Part shown: positions 27,347 to 64,000 of the stretch, piece after piece | How positions within the stretch are numbered: the first letter of the stretch is position 1 | Layout: each line of letters starts with the position of its first letter | The notes under the pieces: model-generated | What the model was told of the DNA's origin: nothing | The model's input: the letters and a program-made list of their open reading frames with translations, nothing else | Database searches by the model: none | DNA from: a virus | Direction: 5' to 3' (one strand) | Virus record (IMG/VR): IMGVR_UViG_3300037493_003528 | Location: 14,811 to 78,810 of that record | DNA: 64,000 nucleotides | Made by a program: the position numbers and the translations under genes

Positions 27347-28474
27347 ATGAGAACAAAACTTAGATTACATGTATTAGGTTTAGCTCACGTCCCTACTCAT
27401 AGGGACGTGAGTATGTGTGCATACACACAGAAGATTTTGAAGTTTTCTGAGATGATGACAGAATTGGGTCACGAGGTTTATCTTTATTGTGGAGAGGGTA
27501 GTGATGTTAAGTGCACAGAATTGATACAATGTATCACTAACCAGGAGCGTATTGATTGTTATGGTGATTATGACTGGCGCACTGAGTTTTTCAAACATGA
27601 TGGTAAAGACTCTGCATACGTAACATTCAATAACAATGCCGTAAGAGAGATAAATAAGAGAAAAGAAAACAAAGATATTCTATGTATCACAATGGGAAAT
27701 TACCAGCAGGTTGTTATTGATGGTACTGGTTTACTTGCAGTAGAGACAGGAATAGGTTATACAGGTACGTGCACAAAGTTCAAGGTATATGAATCATATT
27801 CTTGGATGCATTACATGTATGGTATTACAAGAGTAAATGATGGACCATCGTACGATTGTGTTATACCAAATTATTTTTATCCTGCTGATTTTCCATATGT
27901 TAAAAAGAAGAAAGATTATTACCTTTACATTGGCAGAATTATATTACGTAAGGGTGTAGACATTGCAGTTCAGGTAACTAAGGAAATTGGTGCTACACTT
28001 ATAATCGCAGGACAGGGTACTCTCAAAAATGAGACAGAACATATTGATATTCAAGGGGATCATATTAAGTTTGTTGGTTCTGTTTTATCTGCCGAACGAT
28101 CTGTATTGATGGGAAATGCTAAAGCAGTATTTGTTCCAACTTATTACATAGAACCATTTGGTGGAGTAGCTGTAGAAGCCATGATGTGCGGTACTCCAGT
28201 AATAACTAGTGATTGGGGCGCATTTACGGAAACTGTTCTACATGGAGTCACTGGGTATCGTTGTCGTACTATTGATGACTATATCTGGTCGGCAAAGAAT
28301 ATCAATAAAATATCCACTAGGGCGTGTAGGGACTGGGCAATTAGAAATTTTTCGTGTGAAAGAATTGGTGCAATGTATGAGGAATATTTCTTTAAGATAA
28401 TGGATTTATGGAAATCTGGGTGGGGAGAATTACATCCTGAAAGAACTGAATTAAATTGGTTAAGGAAATATTAA
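27347..28474 (+). CDS. GT4 (GT-B) glycosyltransferase
   Basis: YIGRIILRKG..EPFGGVAVEAMMCGTPVI. Confidence 0.88.
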   Translation: MRTKLRLHVLGLAHVPTHRDVSMCAYTQKILKFSEMMTELGHEVYLYCGEGSDVKCTELIQCITNQERIDCYGDYDWRTEFFKHDGKDSAYVTFNNNAVREINKRKENKDILCITMGNYQQVVIDGTGLLAVETGIGYTGTCTKFKVYESYSWMHYMYGITRVNDGPSYDCVIPNYFYPADFPYVKKKKDYYLYIGRIILRKGVDIAVQVTKEIGATLIIAGQGTLKNETEHIDIQGDHIKFVGSVLSAERSVLMGNAKAVFVPTYYIEPFGGVAVEAMMCGTPVITSDWGAFTETVLHGVTGYRCRTIDDYIWSAKNINKISTRACRDWAIRNFSCERIGAMYEEYFFKIMDLWKSGWGELHPERTELNWLRKY

Positions 28475-28478
28475 CTTT

Positions 28479-29039
28479 ATGGATAAAAAATATTTTACTG
28501 AGTTAACCATTGAAGAAACACCGTTTGCTAATAATCTTGGTGCTGCAATCATTGATATATTTGCTCCTAAATCAGTGGTAGATGTTGGTTGCGCTACAGG
28601 TTTGTATCTTAAACCGTTGATAGAGAATAATATTGCAGTTCTCGGGATAGATTCTAGCGGTGTTGCTGTAGAAAATGCAGTTATACCACTGAAATATTTA
28701 GTGAGAGTTAACATCTTGGATCTATCATTAAAGTTACAAAGGAATATGTATGATTTATGTATATGCTTGGAAGTTTTGGAGCATATAGAAGCACAGTATT
28801 CACTAAAAGTTATCAAGAATCTTGTGCAACTATCAGATACAATTATATTTTCTGCTGCACAACCTATGCAGGGTGGGGAGGGACACGTGAATTGTCGTCC
28901 ACGCAATTATTGGGAATCTTTATTCGTTTCCCTAAATTTTTATAGAGATATTGAGAAAGAGATTTTATTGAAGGAAAGGATTCTTAAAGGAGTATATATG
29001 GGATGGTTCATAAACAATTTTATGATATTCATTAAGTAG
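28479..29039 (+). CDS. class I SAM-dependent methyltransferase
   Basis: VVDVGCATG, CLEVLEHI, QGGEGHVN. Confidence 0.85.
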   Translation: MDKKYFTELTIEETPFANNLGAAIIDIFAPKSVVDVGCATGLYLKPLIENNIAVLGIDSSGVAVENAVIPLKYLVRVNILDLSLKLQRNMYDLCICLEVLEHIEAQYSLKVIKNLVQLSDTIIFSAAQPMQGGEGHVNCRPRNYWESLFVSLNFYRDIEKEILLKERILKGVYMGWFINNFMIFIK

Positions 29040-29072: not shown

Positions 29073-29104
29073 AATTAGACTAAATTTTGTTATTGGAGGA
29101 TATT

Positions 29105-30199
29105 ATGAGTTACATAAATTTTACTACGGCTCTCGTCAACGAACTGGGAAATTTGTTGGATGATGGGAAGTTTGTTGATATTGTAGGACGTACTGGTGTC
29201 AAGTCTTCAACACTTGAACTAACTGGTCGACTCATAACCATAGATAAACCTACTGAGCGTGTTATATGCATTCCTCACAGGAATAATAACATATTTGCTA
29301 CAGTTGCAGAGACTGTATGGGTTCTTGCTGGTCGCAATGATGTTAATTTCTTATCAAGATATTTACCTAGAGCGGTAAATTTCTCGGATGATGGTGTCGT
29401 GTGGAGAGCTGGTTATGGTCCCAGACTTAGGAATTATGACGGTGTAGATCAGATAATGAATGTTGTAAATATACTAAAGAGTAACCTTACCAGCCGTCAG
29501 GCTGTTATATCAATATTTGATCCACGAAAAGATTATGAAGATTCAAAAGATATCCCATGCACAAATTGGATACACTTCATGGTGCGTGATGGTAAATTAC
29601 TCATGTCAATAGTGATGCGTAGTAATGATATAATTTGGGGTGCGTCTGGGATTAACTGGTTTGAGTGGTCTGTCTTACACGAATATGTTGCACAAGCAGT
29701 TGGTGTGGATGTTGGAAAAATGACATATTTTGCAGATTCCCTGCACCTGTACTCAGATCATTATGGTAAAGCAGAGAAAATCGTTAAAACATATACATCT
29801 AATATGTATACTGCTTTTGGATTCGAGTCTGATAAGTTAGTCGTTGGTGCTGATATGGATGAAATACTCAGTGAGATTCTTGAAATTGAAGACATGATAT
29901 CGGTTAATGCTTATGCTAGGGGAGGCATGACAATCTTCTCAGATCCAGATGCTGGTTTACTGGGTCGTTTTCGGGATATGCTTATTTTGTGGAATTTCAT
30001 AAAAATTGACGATACATATGGTATCACACACGTTTTGAATAGTATGTATCGTGAGAATGGTAACTTGGATTTGAGGGTTGCTGCGATAGAGTATATAACA
30101 AGAACAAAGGAATTACCGTCGGGTGTTCCAGTTCATCCAAATGAAATCGCATTTTTGTCACAATTTTCTGCTACAAATAAGGTCACGAATTTATTGTGA
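29105..30199 (+). CDS. thymidylate-synthase-superfamily enzyme, probably dUMP hydroxymethylase (start revised to 29105)
   Basis: YGPRL..SRQAVI..DIPC..MRSNDIIWG..IN..SLHLY; Asn at the specificity position suggests dUMP; GGAGG RBS. Confidence 0.75.
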   Translation: MSYINFTTALVNELGNLLDDGKFVDIVGRTGVKSSTLELTGRLITIDKPTERVICIPHRNNNIFATVAETVWVLAGRNDVNFLSRYLPRAVNFSDDGVVWRAGYGPRLRNYDGVDQIMNVVNILKSNLTSRQAVISIFDPRKDYEDSKDIPCTNWIHFMVRDGKLLMSIVMRSNDIIWGASGINWFEWSVLHEYVAQAVGVDVGKMTYFADSLHLYSDHYGKAEKIVKTYTSNMYTAFGFESDKLVVGADMDEILSEILEIEDMISVNAYARGGMTIFSDPDAGLLGRFRDMLILWNFIKIDDTYGITHVLNSMYRENGNLDLRVAAIEYITRTKELPSGVPVHPNEIAFLSQFSATNKVTNLL

Positions 30200-56897: not shown

Positions 56898-58523
56898 ATG
56901 AATAAAATTTTATGTCCTGAATGTGGCAAGGCATTGGTGAAACGTGAGCGTCGATCGGATGGAAAACCTTTTTGGGGGTGCTCAGGTTTTCCCATTTGTA
57001 GGAAGATAGTAAACTGGACAAGCGATACTCAGGAAGTAGAAAAGAAAGTAGTCTTCGTAAAAGAGGATGTTTTCCTGCCATCTGAATATCAGGTTGCTAT
57101 TTATGATTGGGTCAAGTCTCACATGGCAGATGGTGGTGGGAAACGTGCCTTGGTTGTGAAGGCTCTTGCTGGTTCTGGTAAGACCACCACTGGTGTGAAG
57201 ATGCTGTCATTCCTGTCGAAGGATTTGGATATCATCTACCTAGCATTCAATAATCGGATAGCAGAACATATGCGGACAAAGTTACCTGATTATGTGAATT
57301 GCAAGACGTACCATGCACTTGGATTTGCTGCAATTCGTGGATTTGAGAAGAATGTTACCGTCGATAAAGATAAGGTTAATAAGATAATAGACCGTTTCTT
57401 GGATCCATATTCCCAGAGAAGTTTATACAGTCCCATACAGCAAATTGTAAGTTTGGTCAAGGCAAATTTAACGTCTACTTCTGTAGAAGATTTGCAGTTC
57501 ATTGTAGATCGTTACGGTATAGAATTGAATGGCGATGCGGATATGATTTTCGGTGTGATTCCCAGTATCATAGAACAGTGCAAGGCTATGACCAACATCA
57601 TCGATTTTGATGATATGTGCTGGTTACCAGTAGTTTTGGATCTTCCCATGAAGAAATTCAATTTCATATTTGTCGATGAAGCGCAAGATACTAACAAAGT
57701 ACAGATAGCGTTAGCTCTTATGAGTATGGATGAGGAATCACGGATCGTGGCGGTGGGTGACGAATATCAGTCAATCTATGGATTTCGTGGTGCCGACGTT
57801 GATGCGATTCCTAATCTTATCCAACATTTTGATGCGGATGTTTTACCACTATCGGTAACCTACCGCTGTCCCAGGAGTCACGTCTTGCAGATTAACAGAT
57901 TGTTCCCTGATATTGGTCTTGAGTTTGCTCCTGATGCTAAGGACGGTATTATCAGGAATATCACTAAGGCAGATTTTATCAAGGAAGTTAAACCTGCTGA
58001 TATGGTGCTGTGCAGAACCAATGCACCGTTAGTTCCTCATGCCTTCTCGCTGATACGTGATGGATTGAAGGCAGTCATTTTGGGACGTGATATCGGAACA
58101 GGGTTGATAACTATGATCCGCAAGACGGTCAAGAAGCAGAGGATAAGCAACATTAACGAATTAATTGTTGCATTAACTGAGTACTCTAGTCGTGAATCTC
58201 AGAAATTGTCAGATCAGAACAAAAATGCACAGGCTCAGGCTCTACAAGATAAGACTGAGACAATCTTTGCCTTATGCGATGGGATTGATACTATAGATGA
58301 ATTGGAAGGGAAAATAAATTCAATTTTCTCTGATGACGTAGAAGGTGTGGTTTTCTCGTCAGTTCATAAGGCAAAAGGTTTGGAAGCAGAGAGAGTTTAT
58401 ATTCTGCATTCCGAGCTGATGCCTCATCCTATGGCAAAGTCATCTTGGGAAGTTCAACAGGAAAATAATATAAAGTATGTGGCTTATACACGATCACTGA
58501 GTGAATTAATTTTTGTTGGTTAA
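56898..58523 (+). CDS. UvrD/Rep-like SF1 helicase with N-terminal topoisomerase-type zinc ribbon
   Basis: CPECG..FWGCSGFPIC; ALAGSGKT, VDEAQD, GDEYQSIYGFRGA, HKAKGLE, YVAYTR. Confidence 0.9.
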   Translation: MNKILCPECGKALVKRERRSDGKPFWGCSGFPICRKIVNWTSDTQEVEKKVVFVKEDVFLPSEYQVAIYDWVKSHMADGGGKRALVVKALAGSGKTTTGVKMLSFLSKDLDIIYLAFNNRIAEHMRTKLPDYVNCKTYHALGFAAIRGFEKNVTVDKDKVNKIIDRFLDPYSQRSLYSPIQQIVSLVKANLTSTSVEDLQFIVDRYGIELNGDADMIFGVIPSIIEQCKAMTNIIDFDDMCWLPVVLDLPMKKFNFIFVDEAQDTNKVQIALALMSMDEESRIVAVGDEYQSIYGFRGADVDAIPNLIQHFDADVLPLSVTYRCPRSHVLQINRLFPDIGLEFAPDAKDGIIRNITKADFIKEVKPADMVLCRTNAPLVPHAFSLIRDGLKAVILGRDIGTGLITMIRKTVKKQRISNINELIVALTEYSSRESQKLSDQNKNAQAQALQDKTETIFALCDGIDTIDELEGKINSIFSDDVEGVVFSSVHKAKGLEAERVYILHSELMPHPMAKSSWEVQQENNIKYVAYTRSLSELIFVG

Positions 58524-58534
58524 CAAGTTTAGTA
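58524..58534 (+). promoter_or_regulatory. promoter-like motif CAAGTTTAGTA
   Basis: Upstream of 58569. Confidence 0.6.
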
Positions 58535-58568
58535 TAATTGGCACAATAATTTATTTATGGAGGCAATA

Positions 58569-59141
58569 ATGGAAGCGACACTTCAGGAATCTATTCAGAG
58601 TTTGGATATGGAAAAGTTTGTGTATTACCTAGCGCATAAGAACTCCTCGGATGTTATTGGAATGGAGTTCGATGATGTGGTCAGTGAGTTGAATGAGGAA
58701 TTGATTAAAGGTTTAGCGTACTATTCACCGAAGAATTTGCCGATGGAACAAATGAGAGCTCTGATGAGAAGGATGCTTGATAATAGGATAAGTGAGTTGA
58801 AATATAAGTATTTTGTAACGTACAGGAAGAATTACCTGAATGCTACATCTATAGAAACAGATATTTTATCAACCAAACTAAGAGCAAGAAATGATCCAGT
58901 TTCTATCATAGAATCCAATGACAGGGTATTTAGTGTCAGGAGTAAGTTGTCTGGTGATGCTGTAACGGTGTTCGATTATGTAATTCTTGGTGACGGTTTG
59001 GTTGATATGAAATTCACAGATTGTACTAAGAAGTTACATTATGCACAATTAGCTATTGTGTTGGGAATGTCTGATAGGATTGTTAAGATGGCATTGGTTG
59101 AGATAAAAGAAACGTACTCGGAGGTACTAGATGAAAATTAA
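58569..59141 (+). CDS. sigma-factor-like / HTH transcription protein (start revised to 58569)
   Basis: GGAGG RBS; FDDVVSEL, C-terminal YAQLAIVLGMSDRIVK HTH-like. Confidence 0.5.
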   Translation: MEATLQESIQSLDMEKFVYYLAHKNSSDVIGMEFDDVVSELNEELIKGLAYYSPKNLPMEQMRALMRRMLDNRISELKYKYFVTYRKNYLNATSIETDILSTKLRARNDPVSIIESNDRVFSVRSKLSGDAVTVFDYVILGDGLVDMKFTDCTKKLHYAQLAIVLGMSDRIVKMALVEIKETYSEVLDEN

Positions 59142-59631
59142 TGATGATCTAATAAGAGATCTATATTCAGATTTTACTAAGGAAGAAGTTTTTGAGGTAG
59201 CTAAGGAAGTGGGGGTGGATTATGTACTGGGTGATAGGGTGAAGGTTCTACTTAAAGCAATTCTCACTAAGATTATAGAAGATAAACCGAAAACTGGAAA
59301 ATTGTCAAATGTAACATTTGAGTTCCTGGTTGCAGCAGAAGTCATTGATGACATTGATGGGAAATATATTTATTTAGATAAGCCTGATATTTACATATTT
59401 GGTGATGATACTGTTGTTGTTGATGAGGGAGAGAAGGTTCCTGCATGTTTTGGATGCGCTGATGCGAAAGATCCATCATGTTCGAAATGCAAAGTTTTTG
59501 ATAATTGTGTTATTGCAAGAGTTGCTAATCGTCCTCCATGTTTCGGAGAAGCATACTTTGCTAATAGCAACGAATGTATATTGTGTATAGAGGCACTTAA
59601 TTGTAATGCTGTAATACTTAGTAAAAAGTAA
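59131..59631 (+). CDS. Cys-rich hypothetical protein
   Basis: Two PxCFG...CxxC...C units. Confidence 0.6.
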   Translation: MKINDDLIRDLYSDFTKEEVFEVAKEVGVDYVLGDRVKVLLKAILTKIIEDKPKTGKLSNVTFEFLVAAEVIDDIDGKYIYLDKPDIYIFGDDTVVVDEGEKVPACFGCADAKDPSCSKCKVFDNCVIARVANRPPCFGEAYFANSNECILCIEALNCNAVILSKK

Positions 59632-59641
59632 AGGAGTTAAT

Positions 59642-60310
59642 ATGAAAAGGCACATTATTAATCGTGGTACTGTAAGGAAAGTAGATCATGAGTCTGAGCC
59701 TGAGGAAGTAGTTGAGGAAGTAGTTGAGGCAGAATCTTTGTATAATCAGACTGAAGAAGAAGAAGTTGATGATAATGATGAATCCTTCAATCTTGCAGCG
59801 GTTTTGCGCAAGAAGTTATCAAAGAAAGAGCCTAGGACAAAGACTGTTTCATCGATTATTGATAAGGATGGTGTTCTCATAGAGCATGAAGAGCCTGTTC
59901 TGCGTAAGAAAGGTTCTAGTCCTATAATTGATATTTTGGATTACATGAAGGTTGGCACTGTCCTGATGGTTTTGCGTGAGGATAGGGATTCCTGGAAAGT
60001 TACAGTAACAGATGATAAGTTTTCTGGGATAATTCATCCGATAGCTATGGGAACCAAATTGTCTGGTAAAGCGTTTTGGGATACTGTTGCGAGTCCTGAT
60101 TACCTAAAATGGAGTCGTGAGTGGAGTAACCTTACCATGGCTGAAAAGAAGAGCCGTGCTATAAAGCTAGGTGTAACTTGGGAAAAGAATGCTAATCCAA
60201 AGATTGAAGCAATGCTTCTGACTGCAGCAGTTCGGGAACATTTGGGAATTTCCAAATACAAACCTGAATATGCAACCAGAGGGTCACGTTCCAATATTCG
60301 TGCTCATTAA
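59642..60310 (+). CDS. hypothetical protein
   Basis: AAGGAG RBS; acidic N-terminal, basic C-terminal. Confidence 0.6.
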   Translation: MKRHIINRGTVRKVDHESEPEEVVEEVVEAESLYNQTEEEEVDDNDESFNLAAVLRKKLSKKEPRTKTVSSIIDKDGVLIEHEEPVLRKKGSSPIIDILDYMKVGTVLMVLREDRDSWKVTVTDDKFSGIIHPIAMGTKLSGKAFWDTVASPDYLKWSREWSNLTMAEKKSRAIKLGVTWEKNANPKIEAMLLTAAVREHLGISKYKPEYATRGSRSNIRAH

Positions 60311-60319
60311 GGAGTTATT

Positions 60320-61405
60320 ATGCGTAAACAGATAAATGTTGCTATTATTGGAGTTGGAAATTGTGCATCTTCATTGGTGCAGGGTGTTGAATTTTATATG
60401 AATGTTCATGATACAGATGATAGAATCCCTGGACTTATGCATAACGTATTGGGTGGGTACGCTGTAGGTGATATAAAATTCGTTGCTGCAATTGATGTTG
60501 TATCCACTAAGGTTGGTTTTGATCTATCACAGGCTATATGGTCTTATCCTAACAACACTATAAAGTTTGCAGATGTACCAATGTTGGGTGTGAATGTTGA
60601 ACGTGGTATGGTGCATGATGGATTAGGTAAGTACCTATCCAAAATAGTCACAAAATCAGATCATCAGACTGTTGACATTGTTAGATTATTAAAAGACACA
60701 AATACAGATGTTGTTGTTAACTTTCTACCTGTTGGATCTGAAGAAGCTACAAAGTGGTATGTGGAACAGGTATTAACAGCTGGGTGTGCGTTTGTCAATG
60801 CTATACCTGTGTTTATTGCCAGTCAGCCATATTGGCAAGAGAGATTTAGGGAGGCTGGTCTTCCAGTTCTTGGAGATGATGTTAAGAGTCAGGTAGGTGC
60901 TACTATTACGCATCGTGTTTTGACTAGTCTGTTCGTGGATCGTGGTGTAAGGTTGGATCATACATACCAACTAAATTTTGGTGGTAATACCGATTTTATG
61001 AATATGTTAGAACGTGAGCGTTTGGAATCTAAGAAGATATCTAAAACAGGTGCAGTTACGAGTATGTTACCATATGCCATGAATCCAAATGATGTTCACG
61101 TTGGTCCTAGTGATTATGTTCCGTGGTTATCTGATAGAAAGTTCTGCTATATTCAGATGGAGGGTACGACGTTTGGAAATGTTCCTTTGAAGTGTGAAGT
61201 GAAACTTGAAGTATGGGACAGTCCCAACTCTGCAGGTGTAATAATTGACGCAATTCGTTGCGCTAAACTTGCCTTGGATAGAAGGTTGGTAGGAGAGATA
61301 GCGTTACCTTCTTCATACTTTTTCAAGACTCCCCCAATTCAGTTTAATGATGATGAATGCAAAAAATTCACGGAAGAGTTCATAGATGGCAGTAGAAACT
61401 ACTAA
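60320..61405 (+). CDS. ino1: myo-inositol-1-phosphate synthase
   Basis: [52 protein letters not shown]. Confidence 0.95.
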
Positions 61406-62066
61406 TTTATATATGCACAAGACTGGTGCATGGTTGCGTAGGGATACGCACGATAAATACGTTATACGGCAAATAAATCAATATAGATCATTGAACATAA
61501 TTCCTGGTTGTAGAGTATTGGATATAGGTGGTCATATTGGTTTATTTGCTAGATATGCTATTGACTGCGGTGCATTACACGTTCTTAGCATAGAACCACA
61601 CCCAGGGAATTGTGATGTATTTGAACTAAATGTTAAAAATTATCCAGATGTGGAATTGATAGAAGCAGCAGTTGTACCTAGAAGTTGTAATGAATCTGAA
61701 ATAAATTTTTATGAGAGTACCACTGATACAAGTGCGCACTCAATTGTTCCAATTCGTGGTCGTAATGTTTTTACAGTAGATACCATTAAGTTTGAGAAAG
61801 TTTTATGTGAGGAAGTAAATTCTAAGTCTGTTGTCATTAAAATTGACATAGAAGGTGGTGAGTTTGGATTATTTCAGGAAATTATAGAATTATTTCCACT
61901 GTATAAAGTATGGTCATTTGCCATAGAATTTCATTTTGGAAAGCCTGGATCTAGGGAATTGACTAGGGAATTTATAAGGAAATTAGATTTGTTATATACT
62001 GCAACAAGAATTGCAAATGTTACGGATAAGGCTTGGAATGCCACAGGAGTTTGGAATGGGACATAG
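61386..62066 (+). CDS. FkbM-family methyltransferase
   Basis: [22 protein letters not shown]. Confidence 0.85.
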
Positions 62067-63090
62067 AGATTTAGATTTATTGAATAGTTTATCTACAAAT
62101 CAGCATTGGGAATCCTTCATAGAATTTTGTGAGTATGATATGTTGTCTGGTGGACCAGATGCTCATCTTACATTAGCAGGTAATATGAGTAAAGGTTTAC
62201 CATTATTAGAGAGATTGTGGCATGCTGGAGTTTATGTAGGTGTTTATAATGTTCCAACAGCTGAGTTGTTGTGGACAACATTTACTCATAACGAAATGAT
62301 AAATATTTCGTTATTAGATCTTACGAATTGGTTAACAGAAAATTGGGGTGGTATTGCTACTAGAAGGGAACGGAAGTGTGTAAGGATTCCTGCTAATATG
62401 GCATTTTACCTTAAGAATTTTGCAGATTGGGCAGTTACACTTATAGGTAGTAAATATTACGATACAAATGGTGGTACTGCTGAATCTAAGTACGAAGATT
62501 TGTGGGAACACTCACAAAAATCAGTAAAGTTTTTAGGACGTTATTCTGGATTCAAGTTCTTGGAGTTTGCAGAGAAATTTTGTGATCTACAAATACGGTT
62601 GCCTGATATACGTCCTAAGGGTGGTTGGAGTCCTAGATCTATGCTATCAATATTGTATCCTGAGCACAAAGAGATATTATTGGGGGATGATTCTAAAAGT
62701 AATTTGGATGCCATTAATGTGATAGCAGATAAAGCGTTAGTGCGGTTGCGTGATGCTGGACAAGATGTTGATATGTTCAAGATGGAAGTGTTTTTATGTG
62801 ATTACAAACAATGCTATTTTGGAAGACGGCAATATCCTGGTAGGTCGCAAGATAGTGAGATTGCATACATGACTAAATTACAAGAATATTGGGATTTTGA
62901 TTTTCAGATGGTAAAGATGCGAGCTAAGATATTTCCACATTGGGCATTAGGAGAATTGAATGGTTGGGTAAATGTGCGAAATGAGTTGGGTGCGGTGTTG
63001 CATGATCATGGTTATATGTGGTCAGATAGTTTATATGATTACAAAAATACAATTGATTTATCTGTTCCAACATCAAAGGTGTGTTTATGA
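62056..63090 (+). CDS. aGPT-Pplase-like (amino acid:DNA transferase family) base-modification enzyme (start revised to 62056)
   Basis: Helical HhH-glycosylase-like pattern RRERK..FLGRYSGFKFLE..EVFLCDYK..YPG; next to 5hmU kinase-like gene. Confidence 0.6.
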   Translation: MGHRDLDLLNSLSTNQHWESFIEFCEYDMLSGGPDAHLTLAGNMSKGLPLLERLWHAGVYVGVYNVPTAELLWTTFTHNEMINISLLDLTNWLTENWGGIATRRERKCVRIPANMAFYLKNFADWAVTLIGSKYYDTNGGTAESKYEDLWEHSQKSVKFLGRYSGFKFLEFAEKFCDLQIRLPDIRPKGGWSPRSMLSILYPEHKEILLGDDSKSNLDAINVIADKALVRLRDAGQDVDMFKMEVFLCDYKQCYFGRRQYPGRSQDSEIAYMTKLQEYWDFDFQMVKMRAKIFPHWALGELNGWVNVRNELGAVLHDHGYMWSDSLYDYKNTIDLSVPTSKVCL

Positions 63091-63515
63091 AATTCACAAC
63101 TATAATTCCAGGTAAGTTGTATCAAGGTGCTGAGTTTAAGAGTAACTTAACAGCAGATGATAAAATGTCAATACTAGACTGTCAGGGTATAGATGTTGTT
63201 ATTAATGTATACAAAAATGAAGATAATTTGTTAGCGAAATGTTTACATCGTTATATTTATCATCCACTGTCAGATGGAACAAAGATTGATGGAACAATAA
63301 ATATTGTTGCTGGAACAGCGTCTGGTCTCATACGAGAGGGACATACAATTTTTACACATTGTCATGCTGGACGAAACAGAAGTGGTTTTGTGAATGCATT
63401 GATAGTCATGAAAGTTTTAAGGATTAGTGGGAAGGATGCGTTGGAATATGTTAGGATGAAGAGACCTGGAGCTATAGATAATATATATTTTGAGCAGTAT
63501 TTGTTGTCATTATAA
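63087..63515 (+). CDS. dual-specificity / PTP-like phosphatase
   Basis: HCHAGRNRS catalytic loop. Confidence 0.88.
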   Translation: MKFTTIIPGKLYQGAEFKSNLTADDKMSILDCQGIDVVINVYKNEDNLLAKCLHRYIYHPLSDGTKIDGTINIVAGTASGLIREGHTIFTHCHAGRNRSGFVNALIVMKVLRISGKDALEYVRMKRPGAIDNIYFEQYLLSL

Positions 63516-63526
63516 CAAGTTTAGTG
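63516..63526 (+). promoter_or_regulatory. promoter-like motif variant CAAGTTTAGTG
   Basis: Upstream of 63542. Confidence 0.55.
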
Positions 63527-63541
63527 TGTTAGGAGAATATT

Positions 63542-64000
63542 ATGATAATTAATATAAGAGGCACTAGTGGTAGTGGTAAAACATATACTGCAAGATCATT
63601 TATGAATTCCTGTGGTCCAGATTTGATAGTTTATGATGATAAGGGAAATATAACTGCTCACGTTGTACACTACAAAATGCAACCTGTATATTTTATTGGT
63701 AAGTATATAAATGTTTGTGGTGGGTGTGATACAGTTGATACTCAGGATTTGGTTAGCTCTTACGTTAGGCACTTTTCACAATTTGGCCATGTTATATTTG
63801 AGGGATTATTGGTAAGTCACAGTTTTGCAAGATTTTATGAGTTAATGCAGGAATTGAATAGTTACGGTAATCCATTTGTTTTTGCACGAATGGATACACC
63901 ACTAGAAGTGTGTTTGGATAGAGTTCGTCAGCGTCGTATTGAAAAGGGAAACACTAAACCTTTTAACACTGCAAATACTGAAGGTGCGTACTATGCTGTA
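63542..64000 (+). CDS. P-loop kinase, 5-hydroxymethyluracil DNA kinase-like (3'-truncated; not in ORF track)
   Basis: MIINIRGTSGSGKT..GKY..CGGCD..IFEG..DTPLEVCLDRVRQRR..GNTKP; AGGAG RBS. Confidence 0.75.
   Translation, partial: MIINIRGTSGSGKTYTARSFMNSCGPDLIVYDDKGNITAHVVHYKMQPVYFIGKYINVCGGCDTVDTQDLVSSYVRHFSQFGHVIFEGLLVSHSFARFYELMQELNSYGNPFVFARMDTPLEVCLDRVRQRRIEKGNTKPFNTANTEGAYYAV

Follow-up and report, generated by a model that had tools for sequence, protein, structure and literature searches.

The 64,000-nucleotide window analysed here comes from an uncultured sediment phage with a circular contig bearing a 127-bp terminal repeat. Five genes occupy positions 60320-64000: Ino1, an FkbM-family methyltransferase, AADT, a minimal dual-specificity cysteine phosphatase (DSP) and a P-loop kinase (Table 1). 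All lie on the plus strand, the first four have firm Pfam matches and the kinase a borderline one, and each is found where the sequence-only reading, an earlier annotation of this DNA without database searches, had placed it. Ino1 and FkbM overlap by 20 nt, FkbM and AADT by 11 nt, and the stop codon of AADT overlaps the start codon of DSP as ATGA. The overlapping frames from Ino1 to DSP indicate translational coupling, and the gene identities are established by their homologies. The last base of the window is the end of the circularly assembled contig, and the operon runs on past the junction: downstream of the kinase lie genes for HMUDK_hel (the helical domain of 5-hmdU DNA kinase), for Nmad1, for a fusion of UDG with PolA and for dCTP deaminase, all outside the view of the sequence-only reading. 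The ORF immediately 5' of Ino1 (59642-60310) has no Pfam, PHROG or Atlas match, and a promoter and terminator scan revealed no enrichment.

Table 1. Features of the modification operon and of the TS-fold gene region in the window
Feature	Positions	Strand	Length	Profile match
GT4 glycosyltransferase, adjoining the TS-like gene	27347-28474	+		PF00534, 81 bits
Class I SAM methyltransferase, between GT4 and the TS-like gene	28479-29039	+		PF08242 and PF08241, above cutoff
Divergent TS-fold protein, candidate dUMP hydroxymethylase	29087-30199	+	370 aa	PF00303, 81.5 bits
Ino1, myo-inositol-3-phosphate synthase	60320-61405	+	361 aa	PF01658, 126.7 bits
FkbM-family methyltransferase	61386-62066	+	226 aa	PF05050, 44 bits (cutoff 22.7)
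AADT (formerly aGPT-Pplase2), DSP-linked subfamily	62056-63090	+	344 aa	PF18724, 34.4 bits (cutoff 26.2)
Minimal dual-specificity cysteine phosphatase (DSP)	63087-63515	+		PF00782, 53.3 bits (cutoff 33.5)
P-loop kinase, candidate 5-hmdU DNA kinase	63542-64000	+	first 153 of ~205 codons	

The Ino1 protein matches Ino1 of M. tuberculosis (1GR0) over its full length (residues 4-357) with 463 bits. The GDDxKS, LNxGGNxD, SKKISKT and WDSPNSAG motifs, which we take to have catalytic roles in myo-inositol-3-phosphate synthase (MIPS), are invariant across 11 phage copies. The whole TIGR03450 model is aligned with 512.5 bits, under its equivalog cutoff of 638, which places the protein outside the actinobacterial mycothiol-type equivalog clade. 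Judged by homology, the phage Ino1 is an ordinary MIPS of actinobacterial type.

The adjoining methyltransferase also passes the second family profile (TIGR01444, 57.2 bits, cutoff 37.7). Characterised FkbM members are O-methyltransferases acting on sugar and cyclohexyl-ring hydroxyls. In the close relatives L005 and L009, the position of FkbM between Ino1 and AADT is occupied by a class I methyltransferase that is not homologous to it. FkbM adjoins Ino1 in at least 11 additional viral loci where AADT is not detectable; at L093, the only one of these inspected, a TS-like gene and HMUDK_hel are close by. AADT-DSP loci without Ino1 carry either FkbM or an IolG-like dehydrogenase together with a DegT/StrS-type aminotransferase, and both arrangements would suit the tailoring of a polyol adduct. 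At L017, IolG is the best match of the oxidoreductase, far below the cutoff (107 bits against 355), and the partner aminotransferase resembles sugar aminotransferases; as a link to polyols, the likeness to IolG is suggestive only. The GT4 glycosyltransferase and the SAM methyltransferase beside the TS-like gene are further candidate tailoring enzymes with a possible link to the operon. GT4 has no specific match in NCBIfam; an MshA- or PimA-like identity was rejected, MshA being one among many weak matches (31.6 bits, far under its family cutoff), and we make no claim of inositol glycosylation.

The remaining 53 codons of the kinase correspond to contig positions 128-286, in a frame that is continuous across the circular junction. 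Its proposed likeness to 5hmU DNA kinases stands in part: the truncated piece in the window scores 23.8 bits against PF18748, under the cutoff of 27, but the L005 ortholog (61% identical) passes with 27.7 bits, and HMUDK_hel (contig 288-1172, 148 bits) lies directly 3' of the kinase. In view of the Pfam matches and the context, we rejected a PHROG label of the kinase as 'terminase small subunit' (phrog_800), which we attribute to cross-matching of P-loops. The dUMP-hydroxymethylase-like gene that had been claimed at 29105 is indeed a TS-fold gene nearest to the versions of 5hmU phages. Among its nearest cultured relatives are those of the Bacillus 5hmU phage SP8 and of ViI-like Salmonella phages, and one gene annotated 'pyrimidine hydroxymethylase'; about 110 C-terminal residues of the protein are without a match. 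Orthologs adjoin the kinase in 19 of 33 AADT loci. Together with dCTP deaminase, this gene provides the genome with a candidate source of 5hmU.

The gene at 62056 had been read as aGPT-Pplase-like, and the Pfam cutoff, the fold and the conserved motifs all place it in AADT/aGPT-Pplase2. The terms aGPT-Pplase and AADT, both used in that reading, are the old and new names of one family (PMC13229309). The gene starts with an ATG preceded by a GGAG site, the alternative being a TTG at 62011. The AlphaFold model (pLDDT 93.3) has its best PDB match in PaMx11 gp46 (PUGT, a 5-PmdU glycinyltransferase; 8z2m/8z2n; PMC11472151), with probability 1.0 and TM 0.50-0.64, followed by HhH glycosylases. Sequence identity to gp46 is only 13-14%, but the two share the flipped-base clamp motifs, including the base-clamp Cys and the G-x-aromatic...K motif, and a lysine near the nucleophile. 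The Trp of the gp46 G-x-W motif is Tyr in the present AADT, as noted for PhiW-14 (PMC11472151). The G-R-Y...K and L-C motifs do not vary among 32 homologs, and beyond gp46 the subfamily possesses an R-Q-Y-P-G-R-S-x-D-S-E block and several arginines, all of them invariant. The present AADT is paired with DSP, whereas PaMx11 has none. Homologs form 74 clusters, 0 of them named, and a scan of genome contigs for the subfamily found no cellular or prophage copy, hence no clue to the host. By tblastn, the only cultured relatives of the subfamily are found in the actinophage ParB-dependent T-dioxygenase systems (ParB, TET/JBP, AADT and kinase; for example Gordonia phage Wooper; PMC13229309), with ~30% identity over half the length. 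These systems have neither DSP nor Ino1, and produce 5hmU by oxidising T in DNA, not from a nucleotide precursor; the same ParB-TET front end is present at some uncultured AADT-DSP loci (L025, L033 and L038).

The DSP, which could also start at a GTG at 63081, has the CX5R loop HCHAGRNRS. The catalytic Cys, the P-loop G-x-N-R and an upstream candidate general-acid Asp are invariant in 31 of 31 copies. Its model (pLDDT 96.6) displays a generic DUSP fold (TM 0.75-0.82 to DUSPs), and the top sequence and fold matches are MAP-kinase phosphatases and archaeal Tk-PTP, with no inositol-phosphate or phosphoinositide phosphatase (PTEN, PTP-like phytase, Siw14) among them. DSP tracks the AADT subfamily, not Ino1: it lies directly 3' of AADT in 31 of the 33 viral loci of the subfamily, and Ino1 is present in 15. 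Cr30, RP13 and Moby, three cultured phages with ino1, were searched for DSP and all lack it. A role of DSP on inositol phosphate is weakened by its company with AADT regardless of Ino1, and also by the Cr30-type clusters, which combine Ino1 and AADT without DSP. At one locus (L018), a single 354-aa fusion protein combines DSP with a Ploopntkinase3 kinase. An apparent pair of DSP paralogs at kinase-less loci was rejected as a single-linkage artefact of this fusion, the second ORFs being Ploopntkinase3 kinases.

The sequence-only reading had proposed a comparison of ino1 co-occurrence across phages. Ino1 and AADT prove to be strongly associated whichever of the two is taken as the starting point, and this holds for several phage lineages that are not related to one another. 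In the 15 subfamily loci that carry it, Ino1 always lies directly 5' of AADT or of the kinase. These loci fall in at least five clades of the AADT tree, where 5 changes suffice to explain the Ino1 label; 500 shuffles needed 11.3 on average, and none came as low as 5. Conversely, AADT is present at 41 of 80 viral Ino1 loci, which were ranked by similarity to the query Ino1 and are hence biased toward relatives; the two genes are within 3.5 kb of each other in 40 of those 41, usually with Ino1 directly 5'. Among the other loci, 17 are without any marker and 11 have a TS match alone. The link spans two AADT families, two kinase families, three polymerase types and two routes to 5hmU, TS-like and TET/JBP. 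Ino1 is missing from 18 of the 33 AADT-DSP loci, two of them in genomes with a completeness rating of 100%, so the subfamily does not strictly need a phage Ino1; the nucleophile at these loci is either host-made or a different one.

Among cultured phages, Caulobacter phage Cr30 and Ralstonia phage RP13 likewise carry ino1 beside thymidine-hypermodification genes. The gene order in Cr30 is AADT (179 bits), a glycosyltransferase-like gene, Ino1. In RP13, HMUDK_hel (162 bits) and Ino1 are 3 kb apart, and PolA is fused to UDG as in the present phage. The Ino1 proteins of both are just 31-40% identical to the present one. Relatives of Cr30 obtain 5hmU via a TET/JBP oxygenase and have a Ploopntkinase3 kinase, whereas the present phage has the TS-like gene. 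Among the ORFs tested in the Cr30-type clusters L112 and L116, no HAD phosphatase was seen beside Ino1. RP13 DNA is reported to be heavily modified by an unknown chemistry (PMC13697223). The present contig was built from ordinary short-read metagenomes, so any modification here, unlike that of RP13, does not block sequencing. Cr30 and RP13 are test systems, not precedents, for an inositol base.

The closest pathway in its logic is that of Salmonella phage ViI, where 5-NeOmdU is made by 5-HMUDK, the AADT gp247 and the PLP decarboxylase gp226: 5hmdU is incorporated, a P-loop kinase phosphorylates it within the DNA, and the phosphate is displaced by gp247 using the serine hydroxyl as nucleophile, with an ether as product (PMC8989533). 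The present TS-like gene is ~40% identical to the versions of ViI-like phages. In contrast to ViI, no PLP decarboxylase or amino-acid tailoring enzyme is detected in the present phage, where Ino1, the O-methyltransferase and the cysteine phosphatase take the tailoring positions. The AADT of this phage is of a divergent subfamily, and separate genes encode its kinase and the helical domain.

These comparisons suggest a thymidine-hypermodification operon in which the added group is probably a phage-made cyclitol, not an amino acid or polyamine. The first steps are backed by homology. dCTP deaminase and the TS-fold dUMP hydroxymethylase would supply 5hmdU nucleotides, to be incorporated by the UDG-fused PolA; the P-loop kinase with its separate HMUDK helical protein would convert 5hmU in DNA to 5-PmdU; and AADT would flip the base out and swap the phosphate for a nucleophile. 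For the subsequent chemistry, we infer that Ino1 converts glucose-6-phosphate to inositol-3-phosphate, and that a hydroxyl of inositol or its phosphate may serve as the AADT nucleophile. The product would be an ether comparable to the O-serinyl product of ViI gp247, whose use of the serine hydroxyl is a precedent for such a link. DSP would then strip the phosphate of the adduct or erase unreacted 5-PmdU, and FkbM may O-methylate a ring hydroxyl. The predicted nucleosides are ~420 Da (5hmdU + 162), 434 Da when methylated and ~500 Da with the phosphate kept. Our literature search found no paper describing an inositol-bearing thymine base. The earlier proposal that myo-inositol or its phosphate replaces the phosphate on thymine, to be dephosphorylated by the phosphatase and methylated by FkbM, is on the whole partly supported.

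A credible, if not favoured, alternative concerns the phosphatase step: DSP may be the editing partner of the kinase, dephosphorylating unconverted 5-PmdU so that mature DNA has 5hmU and not a labile phospho-ester. The combination of AADT, DSP and kinase is near-universal with or without Ino1 (31/33 loci), DSP is fused to a kinase at L018, and the Cr30-type Ino1 clusters do without it. An IMPase-family enzyme is also present in 14 of 14 control cellular genomes, so a host can dephosphorylate free inositol phosphate. Editing, however, leaves unexplained why DSP accompanies this AADT subfamily alone and not the ViI, M6, PaMx11 or Gordonia systems, and a phosphatase set against a kinase amounts to a futile cycle unless timed or restricted to certain sites. 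This alternative competes for one step and is compatible with an inositol adduct.

That inositol belongs to the modification but is not the group attached by AADT we consider unlikely. AADT would here add another nucleophile, for example an amino acid or some small alcohol bearing a phosphate, and inositol or its phosphate would come later, for example via a glycosyltransferase, or would be a linker or glycan precursor as in SP-15 and YerA41. Glycosyltransferases do adjoin AADT and Ino1 in Cr30, L112 and L116, and the TS-like gene in the present phage; RP13 falls in the SP15-like polymerase group, where the characterised members have a linker with sugars; many AADT-DSP loci function without Ino1; and in Moby ino1 lies within a 7-deazaguanine cluster that has no AADT. 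Against this stands the close spacing of Ino1 and AADT in 40 of the 41 loci that have both. In the present phage, moreover, the genes overlap in one coupled unit, the glycosyltransferase is 32 kb away, and the cluster is without an inositol-activating gene such as a cytidylyltransferase.

It is quite improbable that Ino1 has no connection with DNA and is an auxiliary metabolic gene, providing inositol for host lipids, osmolytes or thiols and brought near AADT by the clustering of early genes. The enzyme is an ordinary actinobacterial-type MIPS, phage ino1 is viewed in the literature as a bacterial gene gained horizontally (PMC9025141), and the 17 loci with no marker and the 11 with a TS match only would agree with such a role. 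The adjacency nevertheless recurs despite differing polymerases, kinases, AADT families and 5hmU sources, and the Ino1 label changes less often on the AADT tree than in any of the 500 shuffles. The overlapping frames indicate co-translation of Ino1 with AADT, and no lipid or thiol pathway gene adjoins Ino1. Finally, a homolog that makes another cyclitol or uses another sugar phosphate, as with the MIPS-like Ari2 and its five-membered cyclitol phosphate, is very doubtful: the MIPS fold supports such variants (6K96, the five-membered cyclitol-phosphate synthase, scores 180 bits) and TIGR03450 falls short of its cutoff, but the M. tuberculosis match is far stronger and full-length, the MIPS motifs are invariant, and that cutoff marks the mycothiol-linked actinobacterial clade, not an enzyme activity.

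The pairing of Ino1 with thymine-modification genes recurs in dozens of phages, culturable ones included, and points to a probable inositol-bearing base. The kinase- and AADT-dependent thymine adducts of the literature that we compared are derived from amino acids or amines (glycine, serine, putrescine, glutamate, diaminopropane), and a DNA base bearing a cyclitol would belong to a new chemical class and widen the AADT substrate range. As a tentative generalisation from gene content, these loci may represent a widespread new class of phage bases: a cyclitol ether-linked to the thymine C5-methylene, in the present phage an O-methylated myo-inositol, with inositol-3-phosphate as the co-substrate of a dedicated AADT subfamily and DSP acting on the base adduct. 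The same phage-made inositol might also decorate other bases, for example through the 7-deazaguanine cluster of Stenotrophomonas phages. A direct test is within reach, since Cr30 and RP13 are cultured and the enzymes are small and look soluble; enzymes able to attach a polyol at 5hmU could also serve 5hmU labelling. If true, the partner DSP would become the first known example of a cysteine phosphatase that acts on a DNA base adduct, the modification could account for the enzyme resistance of some phage DNA, such as that of RP13, and phage ino1 genes, at present annotated as stray metabolic genes, would gain a function.

All five plus-strand genes that the sequence-only reading had proposed at the end of the window are present in the ORF listing and in Pfam and PHROG scans. 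The genes for inositol-3-phosphate synthase (Ino1) and the FkbM-family methyltransferase overlap by 20 nt, the latter overlaps the amino-acid:DNA transferase (AADT) gene by 11 nt, with GGAG preceding the AADT ATG, and an ATGA is common to the end of the AADT gene and the start of the dual-specificity phosphatase (DSP) gene. The genes are translationally coupled. The viral contig is 78,810 bp long, assembles as a circle because of a 127-bp terminal repeat, and has the window as its final 64 kb. The kinase ORF resumes in frame at contig positions 128-286 (numbering of the whole record) and totals ~205 aa. Downstream of it lie genes for a protein with the helical domain of 5-hmdU DNA kinase (HMUDK_hel; PF18723, 148 bits), Nmad1, a UDG-PolA fusion and dCTP deaminase.

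Genes of the proposed modification pathway in the window
Gene	Position	Strand	Source or surroundings
Ino1	60320-61405	+	ORF listing, Pfam/PHROG scans
FkbM-family methyltransferase	61386-62066	+	ORF listing, Pfam/PHROG scans
AADT	62056-63090	+	ORF listing, Pfam/PHROG scans
CX5R DSP	63087-63515	+	ORF listing, Pfam/PHROG scans
P-loop kinase	63542 to window end (64000)	+	ORF listing, Pfam/PHROG scans
Divergent thymidylate-synthase-fold (TS-like) gene	29087-30199		Adjoins GT4 glycosyltransferase and class I methyltransferase

Several further features of the region were recorded. Three ORFs (194, 166 and 222 aa; window 58557-60310) separate a UvrD-like helicase gene from Ino1, have no match in Pfam, PHROG or Atlas, and keep their order in two related viral loci, L009 and L010. 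The 26-nt spacer ahead of the kinase gene (CAAGTTTAGTG) contains a CAAGTTTAGT motif at window 63515-63527, and a second copy directly precedes Nmad1 at contig positions 1163-1175 (CAAGTTTAGTA). Metagenome runs of sediment and freshwater sediment from several studies have contigs that share pieces of window 58000-64000; the word shares are 0.49, 0.44 and 0.24 apart from the probable source sample.

The Ino1 protein matches inositol-3-phosphate synthase (MIPS) of M. tuberculosis (1GR0) over its full length with 463 bits, versus just 180 bits for the five-membered cyclitol-phosphate synthase 6K96, and 11 phage copies all retain the conserved MIPS motifs without change. The earlier assignment of the gene at 62056 as aGPT-Pplase-like, the former name of AADT (PMC13229309), is borne out: the protein scores above the Pfam cutoff, and PaMx11 gp46, a glycinyltransferase acting on phosphorylated 5hmdU (5-PmdU), heads the PDB matches of its AlphaFold model (pLDDT 93), ahead of HhH DNA glycosylases. 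The motifs G-x-aromatic...K and L-C are invariant in 32 homologs; the Trp and Cys of the corresponding gp46 motifs clamp the flipped base, while Trp and Lys bond the nucleophile (PMC11472151). The nearest cultured relatives of the TS-like gene belong to the 5hmU phage SP8 and ViI-like phages, and one is annotated 'pyrimidine hydroxymethylase'. Pfam and every tblastn match stop near residue 235-260 of this 370-aa protein, and neither detects similarity in the C-terminal ~110 residues.

The gene at 63542, read from sequence alone as 5hmU-DNA-kinase-like, is a candidate 5-hmdU DNA kinase (HMUDK): the piece truncated at the window end falls slightly below the HMUDK cutoff, and the ortholog in the related viral locus L005 exceeds it. 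Kinase and HMUDK_hel (contig 288-1172) are separate neighbouring genes in different frames: the stop codon of the kinase lies at contig 286, and HMUDK_hel starts from the ATG at 288. The same split occurs in L005 and most relatives. The DSP model shows a generic minimal DUSP fold (pLDDT 96.6), and none of the 31 copies examined departs from the catalytic Cys, the P-loop G-x-N-R or the candidate general-acid Asp.

The window AADT has 74 homolog clusters, none of them named. A profile scan of viral contigs yielded 33 loci with 31-75% identity, which were analyzed by a tblastn matrix and ORF clustering. DSP lies directly 3' of AADT in 31 of them, mostly followed by a P-loop kinase, which is a Ploopntkinase3 in some loci and in others HMUDK-type, its helical domain encoded by a gene of its own. 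This AADT-DSP-kinase triad is near-universal across the DSP-linked subfamily; in one locus (L018:10068-11132) DSP and a Ploopntkinase3 kinase are fused into one 354-aa protein. The gene after this fusion (L018:11135-14509) encodes PolIII-alpha carrying a UDG domain at its C-terminus, a different kind of UDG-polymerase fusion from UDG-PolA. The subfamily is virus-only in distribution, with no relative among ~186,000 species-representative genomes; cultured-phage relatives are distant, half-length and confined to actinophages lacking DSP.

The co-occurrence of ino1 with these genes, proposed as a check of the original reading, is recovered in both directions. Ino1 lies immediately 5' of AADT in 14 of the 33 loci and immediately 5' of the kinase in one more, adjoining AADT or kinase in 15. 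On the AADT tree its presence requires five changes, where shuffled labels need 11.3 on average (0/500 shuffles as low), and is clustered, yet not monophyletic. The gene between Ino1 and AADT varies: it can be FkbM, a non-homologous class I methyltransferase, a radical-SAM enzyme or a homing endonuclease, and the slot can also be empty. The methyltransferase thus shows non-orthologous replacement between loci. Ino1 is genuinely absent from two genomes rated 100% complete, and where it is missing the loci have a different front end or different tailoring genes: ParB with TET/JBP, radical SAM or FkbM. One such AADT-DSP locus (L017:10423-12542) carries a GFO/IDH/MocA oxidoreductase, whose top NCBIfam match is inositol 2-dehydrogenase IolG, far under cutoff, and a DegT/StrS-type aminotransferase, then a class I methyltransferase; the first two could produce an aminocyclitol or amino sugar.

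Conversely, a search with an Ino1 profile gave at least 323 viral relatives, the best 80 of which were scanned with HMMs from clusters built here. AADT occurs in 41 of these 80 loci, a list that favours relatives because it is ranked by similarity to the query Ino1, and lies within 3.5 kb of Ino1 in 40 of the 41. The Ino1-linked AADTs comprise 33 of the DSP-linked subfamily and 8 of canonical type, whose loci are ordered TET/JBP, (GT), AADT, (GT-like), Ino1, Ploopntkinase3. An Ino1-FkbM pair is found in 11 further loci of the best 80; in the one examined (L093), TS-like, dUTPase and HMUDK_hel genes surround it.

Among cultured phages, Ino1 homologs appear in 19 records: 16 of Stenotrophomonas phages, two of Caulobacter phage Cr30 and one of Ralstonia phage RP13. 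In Cr30, ino1 comes after a strong AADT (179 bits) and a GT-like gene, and in RP13 HMUDK_hel (162 bits) lies 3 kb 5' of ino1. The DNA of RP13 is described as highly modified by an unidentified chemistry, and the polymerase of this phage is UDG-fused, a type typical of modified-thymidine phages (PMC13697223). Stenotrophomonas phage Moby (MN095772, 8201-13615) carries ino1 in a 7-deazaguanine DNA-modification cluster of FolE, ino1, a hypothetical gene, QueC, DpdA-like TGT and QueE. This cluster lacks AADT, and phage ino1 is therefore tied to a purine-modification system too.

The operon is well supported as a thymidine hypermodification system of the kinase-plus-AADT kind. Beyond this we infer which molecule AADT accepts, what DSP does and what the methyltransferase modifies. 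The sequence-only reading proposed that AADT could place inositol on 5hmU, with phosphatase and FkbM tailoring to follow. We lean slightly towards direct attachment of inositol (phosphate) by AADT; an alcohol nucleophile has precedent in ViI gp247 (PMC8989533). DSP may dephosphorylate the adduct or erase leftover 5-PmdU, and its distribution suits erasing at least as well. DSP is absent from Cr30, RP13 and Moby. The phage of the window has no IMPase-family gene, which is present in 14/14 control cellular genomes. Full-text literature searches returned no paper with inositol on DNA and none tying phage ino1 to DNA modification. The unusually strong and independently recurring gene association suggests that the product of Ino1 enters DNA modification in these viruses.
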